From Escherichia phage vB_EcoM_112: a stretch of DNA of 64,000 nt. Both the position numbers and the translations under genes were made by a program. The notes beneath the pieces were generated by a model. It was not told where the DNA came from. It did no database searches and saw only the letters and a program-made list of their open reading frames with translations. Within the stretch, counting starts at the first letter, position 1; each line of letters starts with the position of its first letter. The stretch lies in sequence record NC_024125.2. One strand, given 5' to 3'. This document shows positions 41,093 to 41,548 of this stretch, in pieces.

Positions 41093-41548
41093 TTATTTTA
41101 AATCGTCTGCCCAATCGAGTTTAAGAGGCTCTTTGTATTCACGGTCAAGTACAACCGGAATTTGTACATCACCGCTAAATGATAAGGGCCCAACATTATA
41201 AGACAATGTTATATGCGGTGTGTAATCATCAAAATCATGTGTAGCACCTAGTGCCCGCGCATACATGTGTCGACAGCGCAGATATTCAGAATCTAACACA
41301 AGTACAAGAGTCGATCCATCTTGTGTTTTCCATACTTCTAAATGTCCAGAAGAAGCTACTTCAAAACTTCCACTCGATGGAACATATGGAACATTTACTC
41401 TCGAATAACATATAGTCGAATGAATTTTTTCTCTAGGAACTGGATTAGGAACACGTAAAGAGCGCTGGAGTTCTTCCAGCGCGTCAAGTGTTAATTCTGA
41501 AAACTTAGCTGCTACATAAAGACCCGTTGAAAAGTCTTTAAATTCCAT
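41093..41548 (-). CDS. 57B: gp57B, 2H-phosphoesterase-like (T4 Acb1 position)
   Basis: 151 aa with two H-x-T/S motifs (HSTICYS, PHITLSY); sits downstream of 57A as in T4. Confidence 0.7.

Follow-up and report, generated by a model that had tools for sequence, protein, structure and literature searches.

The window, a 64,000-nucleotide stretch of Escherichia phage vB_EcoM_112 DNA (NC_024125.2), carries a short open reading frame whose product has two H-x-T motifs. Does this product destroy the cyclic oligonucleotide signals of CBASS, as Acb1 of phage T4 does, or is it the RNA ligase that public records name at this place? Our sequence comparisons assign the reading frame, at a confidence close to certainty, to acb1 (57B) of a T4-like phage (Tequatrovirus), and its predicted product is the Acb1 2H phosphoesterase acting against CBASS. 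Judged by its sequence the gene is already known, since its product is, but for one missing first Met, the same protein as the founding Acb1 of T4, which has been characterised both biochemically and genetically.

The open reading frame and its two motifs

The initial annotation had described two H-x-T/S motifs, HSTICYS near the N-terminus and PHITLSY near the C-terminal third, and had left the strand unstated. Both were found in these places, at H43 and H112, and the frame lies on the minus strand (Table 1). Of the five histidines counted in the 151 aa, just two belong to an H-x-[TS] motif; they lie 28% and 74% of the way along the protein. There is thus one such motif in each half of the protein (HST 43-45 and HIT 112-114), as is the rule in the 2H superfamily. 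By itself the pair is weak evidence, because 16.6% of 100,000 composition-matched shuffles of the protein also had at least two H-x-[TS] motifs (P ~0.17). The meaning of the motifs and the case for Acb1 come from the homology set out below rather than from the bare pattern. Three plus-strand reading frames within the same interval (54, 47, and 38 aa) were considered and rejected as unsupported; the substitutions relative to T4 are all silent in the minus-strand frame.

Table 1. Features of the acb1 region; positions are those of the window.
Feature	Position	Strand	Remarks
Gene 3	42565..43095	(-)	
MotA-box-like TGCTTCA then TATAAT	42539..42564	(-)	Just upstream of gene 1; regular-expression scan, consensus match only; candidate middle promoter for gene 1-57A-acb1
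Gene 1, dNMP kinase	41790..42515	(-)	
TATAAATA	42146..42153	(-)	Fits the T4 late-promoter consensus; lies within gene 1, with 356 nt from it to the 57A start; pattern search; candidate late promoter for 57A-acb1
Gene 57A, tail-fibre chaperone	41548..41790	(-)	Directly upstream of acb1; PHROG 1002, E 6e-28
acb1 (gene 57B) CDS	41093..41548	(-)	151 codons + TAA stop; from ORF list
First catalytic H-x-T	41414..41422	(-)	CAT TCG ACT, H43-S44-T45 in HSTICYS; T4 H44/T46; catalytic per PMC9117128
Second catalytic H-x-T	41207..41215	(-)	CAT ATA ACA, H112-I113-T114 in PHITLSY; T4 H113/T115; catalytic per PMC9117128
C-terminal lid LDWADDLK	41096..41119	(-)	Residues 144-151 (published 145-152), including base-stacking W146 (published W147); identical to T4
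Promoter-like element + stem-loop	41042..41080	(-)	Directly after the acb1 stop; TTTACA-17-TACTAT with upstream TG; one of three direct-repeat copies
Other two cassette copies	40712-40750 and 40412-40450	(-)	
Two internal-protein genes	40451..40702 and 40763..41020	(-)	PHROG 8111 and 3499
Homing-endonuclease ORF, free-standing	43202..43876	(-)	224 aa from a TTG start; PHROG 655, E 3e-58; no Pfam match
Nine tRNA calls (ARAGORN)	37809..39434	(-)	Lys-ttt, Arg, Met-cat, Thr, Ser, Pro, Gly, Leu, Gln

Identity with T4 gp57B and matches to known families

Direct comparison with the T4 reference (NC_000866) showed that all 151 residues of the window protein are identical to residues 2-152 of T4 gp57B (NP_049750.1), so that each residue number in the window is the T4 number minus one. 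The coding sequences differ at eight codons, and all eight differences are synonymous, with none non-synonymous. The minus-strand frame is thereby confirmed, and the gene is seen to be under purifying selection. Alignment placed H43 and H112 of the window on H44 and H113 of T4 Acb1, and the misalignment of catalytic histidines that would have spoken against the assignment is absent.

Family searches gave the same picture. The protein scored 202.7 bits (E 2.6e-60) with the Pfam family PF23474 'Anti-CBASS protein Acb1', whose curated cut-off is 27, and its residues 8-149 covered the entire profile (1-144 of 144). With its identity to T4 gp57B 2-152, this full-length match bears out the earlier reading of the product as gp57B/Acb1 with an intact catalytic centre. 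Its family in PHROGs is phrog_755 (E 5e-68), described there as 'RNA ligase'. The top match in a search of the PDB was Acb1 of Erwinia phage FBB1 (7T26/7T27; E 4.1e-62, residues 8-148, with a single gap of one residue), and weaker matches were 9Q2G and 9Q2Y, both deposited as 'Anti-CBASS protein Acb1'. Nothing was found in the sequence comparisons against the Acb1 assignment.

At the nucleotide level, Megablast with 2.2 kb around acb1 found 653 phage records, nearly all of Tequatrovirus and its close relatives, the best being 98.5% identical. A tblastn search with the protein found a homologue in 1,469 phage records. The homologue is at least 99% identical in 497 of these, one of which is annotated 'anti-CBASS protein Acb1'.

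AlphaFold2 run with single-sequence input returned a mean pLDDT of 37.9 and a pTM of 0.30 for the protein, values too low for the model to be of use. The compact 2H fold is predicted here from homology to 7T26 (68% identity, E 4e-62), the crystal structure of FBB1 Acb1 at 1.1 A (PMC9117128).

Conservation of functional residues

We aligned 11 sequences, namely the window protein, T4 and FBB1 Acb1, and eight homologues from phage records: Klebsiella (80% identity), Serratia (66%), Krischvirus (47%), Aeromonas (47%), Acinetobacter (43%), Cronobacter (41%), Vibrio (38%), and Salicola (27%). Even with identity down to 27%, the columns H43, T45, S49, V82, R93, G101, Y109, P111, H112, T114, and E137 were invariant, so the catalytic tetrad H43/T45/H112/T114 is among the very few fully conserved columns.

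The residues with published roles in ligand binding, Y12, W74, F107, W147, and E141, are all present in the window as Y11, W73, F106, W146, and E140. The positions of Y11, W73, and F106 are aromatic in every homologue where they are aligned. The Aeromonas phage protein, whose C-terminus is short, has no counterpart of W146, which is tryptophan in most homologues, and E140 is glutamate in most of the homologues aligned. In the HMMER alignment with the more distant 2H PDE-9 (9Q2G), H43 and H112 of the window fall on chain residues 50 and 123; H50 and H123 are the catalytic histidines named for that enzyme (bioRxiv 10.1101/2025.08.21.671373).

The 57A-acb1 junction and translation

The T4 gene order 3, 1, 57A, 57B is kept on the minus strand of the window. 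The TAA stop of 57A and the ATG of acb1 share one base (TAATG, 41546..41550). At the T4 junction, GAA TGA TGG, the 57A stop codon is TGA, and of two consecutive ATGs it is the first that serves as the annotated 57B start. The window junction reads GAA TAA TGG, and the start region is ATAATG rather than ATGATG. Because 57A stops with TAA and not TGA, the first ATG of T4 is lost, only the second is left, and the predicted Acb1 has 151 aa instead of 152. This loss of the first tandem start codon is probably without consequence. A scan of IMG/VR for the 57A/57B junction found three exact contigs, two with ATA and one with ATG, so both variants exist, in a number too small for frequencies. By annotation, the 57A stop also overlaps or abuts the 57B start in seven further Straboviridae genomes, from phages of seven other genera (T4-like phages of Serratia, Acinetobacter, Vibrio, Aeromonas, Cronobacter, and Klebsiella, and a Krischvirus).

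No Shine-Dalgarno-like purine run was recognisable before the acb1 ATG in the window, whereas such a run is present before genes 1, 3, and 57A and before both genes downstream of acb1. As the TAATG overlap is kept and acb1 has no Shine-Dalgarno sequence of its own, we infer that its translation is coupled to that of 57A; given the same lack, the expression level of acb1 is likewise one that we infer. The conserved gene arrangement, and nothing beyond it, also underlies two further ideas: a functional coupling of 57A and acb1 that would link both the amount of the nuclease and the time of its appearance to late morphogenesis, or else a second, RNA-directed substrate. We give the pair of them only a slim chance.

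Putative transcription signals and neighbouring genes

The TATAAATA match inside gene 1 stands at the same offset in T4 (5006..5013 of the T4 locus, L001), but its frequency in the window is, by pattern search, no higher than chance. This site and the MotA-box-like site before gene 1 are candidate promoters, that is, consensus matches whose one backing is positional conservation with T4. A generic scan for sigma-70 promoters and terminators over 40300..44000 gave counts not above those of shuffled sequence. The acb1 gene would be read from middle and/or late promoters upstream, and the candidate sites of both kinds fit the Acb1 activity seen at ~15 min of T4 infection (PMC9117128).

A promoter-like element with a stem-loop follows the acb1 stop immediately, and folding of the 76-nt stretch predicted hairpins with a total of -20.5 kcal/mol. 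The cassette is likely to terminate transcription of acb1 and to start that of the next gene. Three minus-strand copies of such a cassette were observed (39-76 nt, each a sigma-70-like promoter plus stem-loop), with a small gene after each. They are similar to the PeSL ('promoter-early stem-loop') elements, regulatory cassettes of T4-type phages that are mobile.

Downstream of acb1 are two internal-protein genes in the place of T4 ipI. Likeness to T4 IpI was found in the first ~20 residues (MKTFKEF...) of one of them only; the other has no similarity, and neither had a match in a Pfam search. IpI* of T4 blocks the GmrSD restriction system. With ipI replaced, the phage may therefore differ in counter-defence against GmrSD.

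Two other observations concern the flanks. The homing-endonuclease reading frame separates gene 3 from gene 2 and overlaps the end of the latter, at a place where T4 has a spacer of ~100 bp, and it was found in just 36 phage records (e.g. RB32 and RB33) as against 653 for the neighbouring DNA. In the tRNA cluster, T4 annotation gives eight tRNAs, with Ile where ARAGORN called Met-cat and without Lys. The 'tRNA-Lys' call, with an unusual length of 94 nt, is perhaps no genuine tRNA; possible T4 counterparts are the small stable RNAs (rnaC/rnaD), located in the same region of the T4 map.

Published activity of T4 Acb1 and proposed mechanism

The identity of the window protein with a tested protein and the conservation of every named functional residue were observed directly. 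The chemistry and the anti-CBASS phenotype come from the literature on the T4 protein and are applied to the present phage as predictions. Using activity-guided fractionation, Hobbs et al. (2022) found T4 57B to be the enzyme that cleaves 3'3'-cGAMP, purified it, and named it Acb1 (PMC9117128). The enzyme was inactive on cA4 and on the 2'-5' linkage of 3'2'-cGAMP. Its HxT/HxT tetrad (H44, T46, H113, T115) was reported to carry out metal-independent acid-base catalysis through a cyclic-phosphate intermediate, giving the product GpAp, and the catalytically inactive controls H44A and H44A/H113A did not block effector activation (PMC9117128). Y12, W74, F107, and W147 stack on the bases, E141 reads the adenine N6, and residues 145-152 make up a lid, which in the FBB1 structure becomes ordered above the ligand when this is bound (PMC9117128). 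A T4 Acb1 from which residues 145-152 have been removed fails to trigger Panoptes (bioRxiv 10.1101/2025.08.21.671373). In infection, lysates of cells infected with T4 delta-acb1 lacked any cGAMP cleavage, and the mutant replicated >300-fold worse on CBASS hosts while growing normally without CBASS (PMC9117128).

Following this work, the window protein would act as a small metal-independent 2H phosphoesterase whose ligands are CBASS cyclic di- and trinucleotides with at least one adenosine (3'3'-cGAMP, cUA, cAAA, cAAG). The ligand would be held in a U-shaped pocket between the stacking aromatics, with the C-terminal lid closing above it. The HxT/HxT tetrad would then catalyse a reaction in which the adenosine 2'-OH attacks the 3'-5' phosphodiester bond, and the cyclic-phosphate intermediate would resolve to a linear product such as GpAp. 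With the signal destroyed, CBASS effectors should stay off and the host should not commit suicide before phage replication ends. The initial annotation had called the anti-CBASS activity 'probably conserved'. This understates the case, because the mature sequence is that of the tested T4 protein apart from one N-terminal Met.

Alternative interpretations

That the H-x-T/S pair is a chance pattern in a non-coding or non-functional reading frame would agree with the frequency of such pairs in shuffled proteins (16.6%). We nevertheless give this a negligible probability and exclude it: the family and structure matches are full-length and highly significant, the differences from T4 are synonymous only, and the motif residues are invariant in distant homologues of a protein with relatives in 1,469 phage records. 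A LigT-like 2'-5' RNA ligase, or an RNA 2',3'-cyclic phosphodiesterase acting on RNA ends as in tRNA repair, is a more substantial proposal. 'RNA ligase' is both the description of PHROG 755 and the RefSeq name of T4 57B and many homologues, acb1 lies ~1.7 kb from the phage tRNA cluster, LigT and Acb1 have the 2H fold in common, and there is a weak match to PF13563, the 2'-5' RNA ligase superfamily (E 0.11). This match, however, reaches 13 bits against a cut-off of 27 and spans residues 80-122 only, as compared with 202.7 bits for the Acb1 profile, and no Pfam match to the ATP-dependent RNA ligase families was found at E up to 1. We know of no ligation assay behind the label, which appears to stem from a likeness to LigT-type 2H enzymes at the level of the superfamily. 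Moreover, the identical T4 protein was isolated as the cGAMP-cleaving enzyme, all cGAMP cleavage is lost from delta-acb1 lysates, and the mutant grows normally without CBASS (PMC9117128). We therefore hold an RNA-end enzyme to be very improbable. The name 'RNA ligase' in RefSeq (including T4 NC_000866) and PHROGs is unsupported by the Pfam score and contradicts the experiments that showed Acb1.

With Acb1 as the preferred reading, CBASS might still not be its only or main target. The enzyme could act mainly on cA3 or on other signals (the cA3 of type III CRISPR, 2'3'-c-di-AMP), which would make the phage visible to guard systems such as Panoptes. Hobbs et al. noted that cleavage of cAAA may permit escape from type III CRISPR systems whose signal is cA3 (PMC9117128). 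T4 Acb1 consumes 2'3'-c-di-AMP and brings about Panoptes-dependent cell death (bioRxiv 10.1101/2025.08.21.671373), and type II Panoptes restricts T-even phages with intact acb1, the gene being mutated in escapers (PMC13577387). On the other hand, a benefit of the gene to the phage has been shown by loss of function on CBASS hosts only, cA4 is not cleaved (PMC9117128), and the window is silent on the defence systems of the hosts of this phage. We consider this broader targeting possible, if somewhat unlikely; it extends the main explanation, is compatible with the CBASS role, and is already in the literature.

Implications

Being the founding Acb1 protein verbatim apart from one Met, the gene has little weight as a discovery. 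Its sequence nevertheless leads us to predict with high confidence that the phage resists CBASS systems whose signals are adenosine-containing, 3'-5'-linked cyclic di- or trinucleotides. The same phage should be open to guard systems that sense Acb1 activity, e.g. Panoptes. Since many public records, including RefSeq T4, say 'RNA ligase' or 'hypothetical protein', automated annotation of the window would probably miss the anti-defence role.

Comparison with known systems

T4 Acb1 (gp57B) is like the window protein in its tetrad, stacking residues, adenine-reading Glu, C-terminal lid, and place after genes 3, 1, and 57A. It differs in the extra annotated first Met and, at the level of DNA, in the eight synonymous codons; downstream, T4 has a single ipI where the window has two other internal-protein genes. 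Acb1 of FBB1, known from the PDB entries 7T26 (apo) and 7T27 (with 3'3'-cGAMP), is 68% identical, with the HxT/HxT tetrad and the lid conserved, and its structure is the basis of the proposed mechanism (PMC9117128). It belongs to another phage and host, differs at about a third of its residues, and carries one extra residue behind the TQ(D/S)G turn.

2H PDE-9 (9Q2G/9Q2Y) is in the same 2H phosphodiesterase structural group as T4 Acb1 and cleaves 3'3'-cGAMP (bioRxiv 10.1101/2025.08.21.671373). Its catalytic H50/H123 align with H43/H112 of the window, in a sequence relationship that is marginal (E 0.004). Its lid is N-terminal rather than C-terminal and, unlike T4 Acb1, it is poor on 2'3'-c-di-AMP and does not trigger Panoptes (bioRxiv 10.1101/2025.08.21.671373). 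LigT (PF13563) and the cellular 2H phosphoesterases share the two H-x-T/S motifs and the 2H fold with the window protein at the superfamily level, but the LigT family has RNA ends as substrates and not cyclic oligonucleotides, and the window protein scores 13 bits with its Pfam model against the cut-off of 27. A further difference is the C-terminal lid, present here and described for Acb1 in the literature (PMC9117128; bioRxiv 10.1101/2025.08.21.671373).
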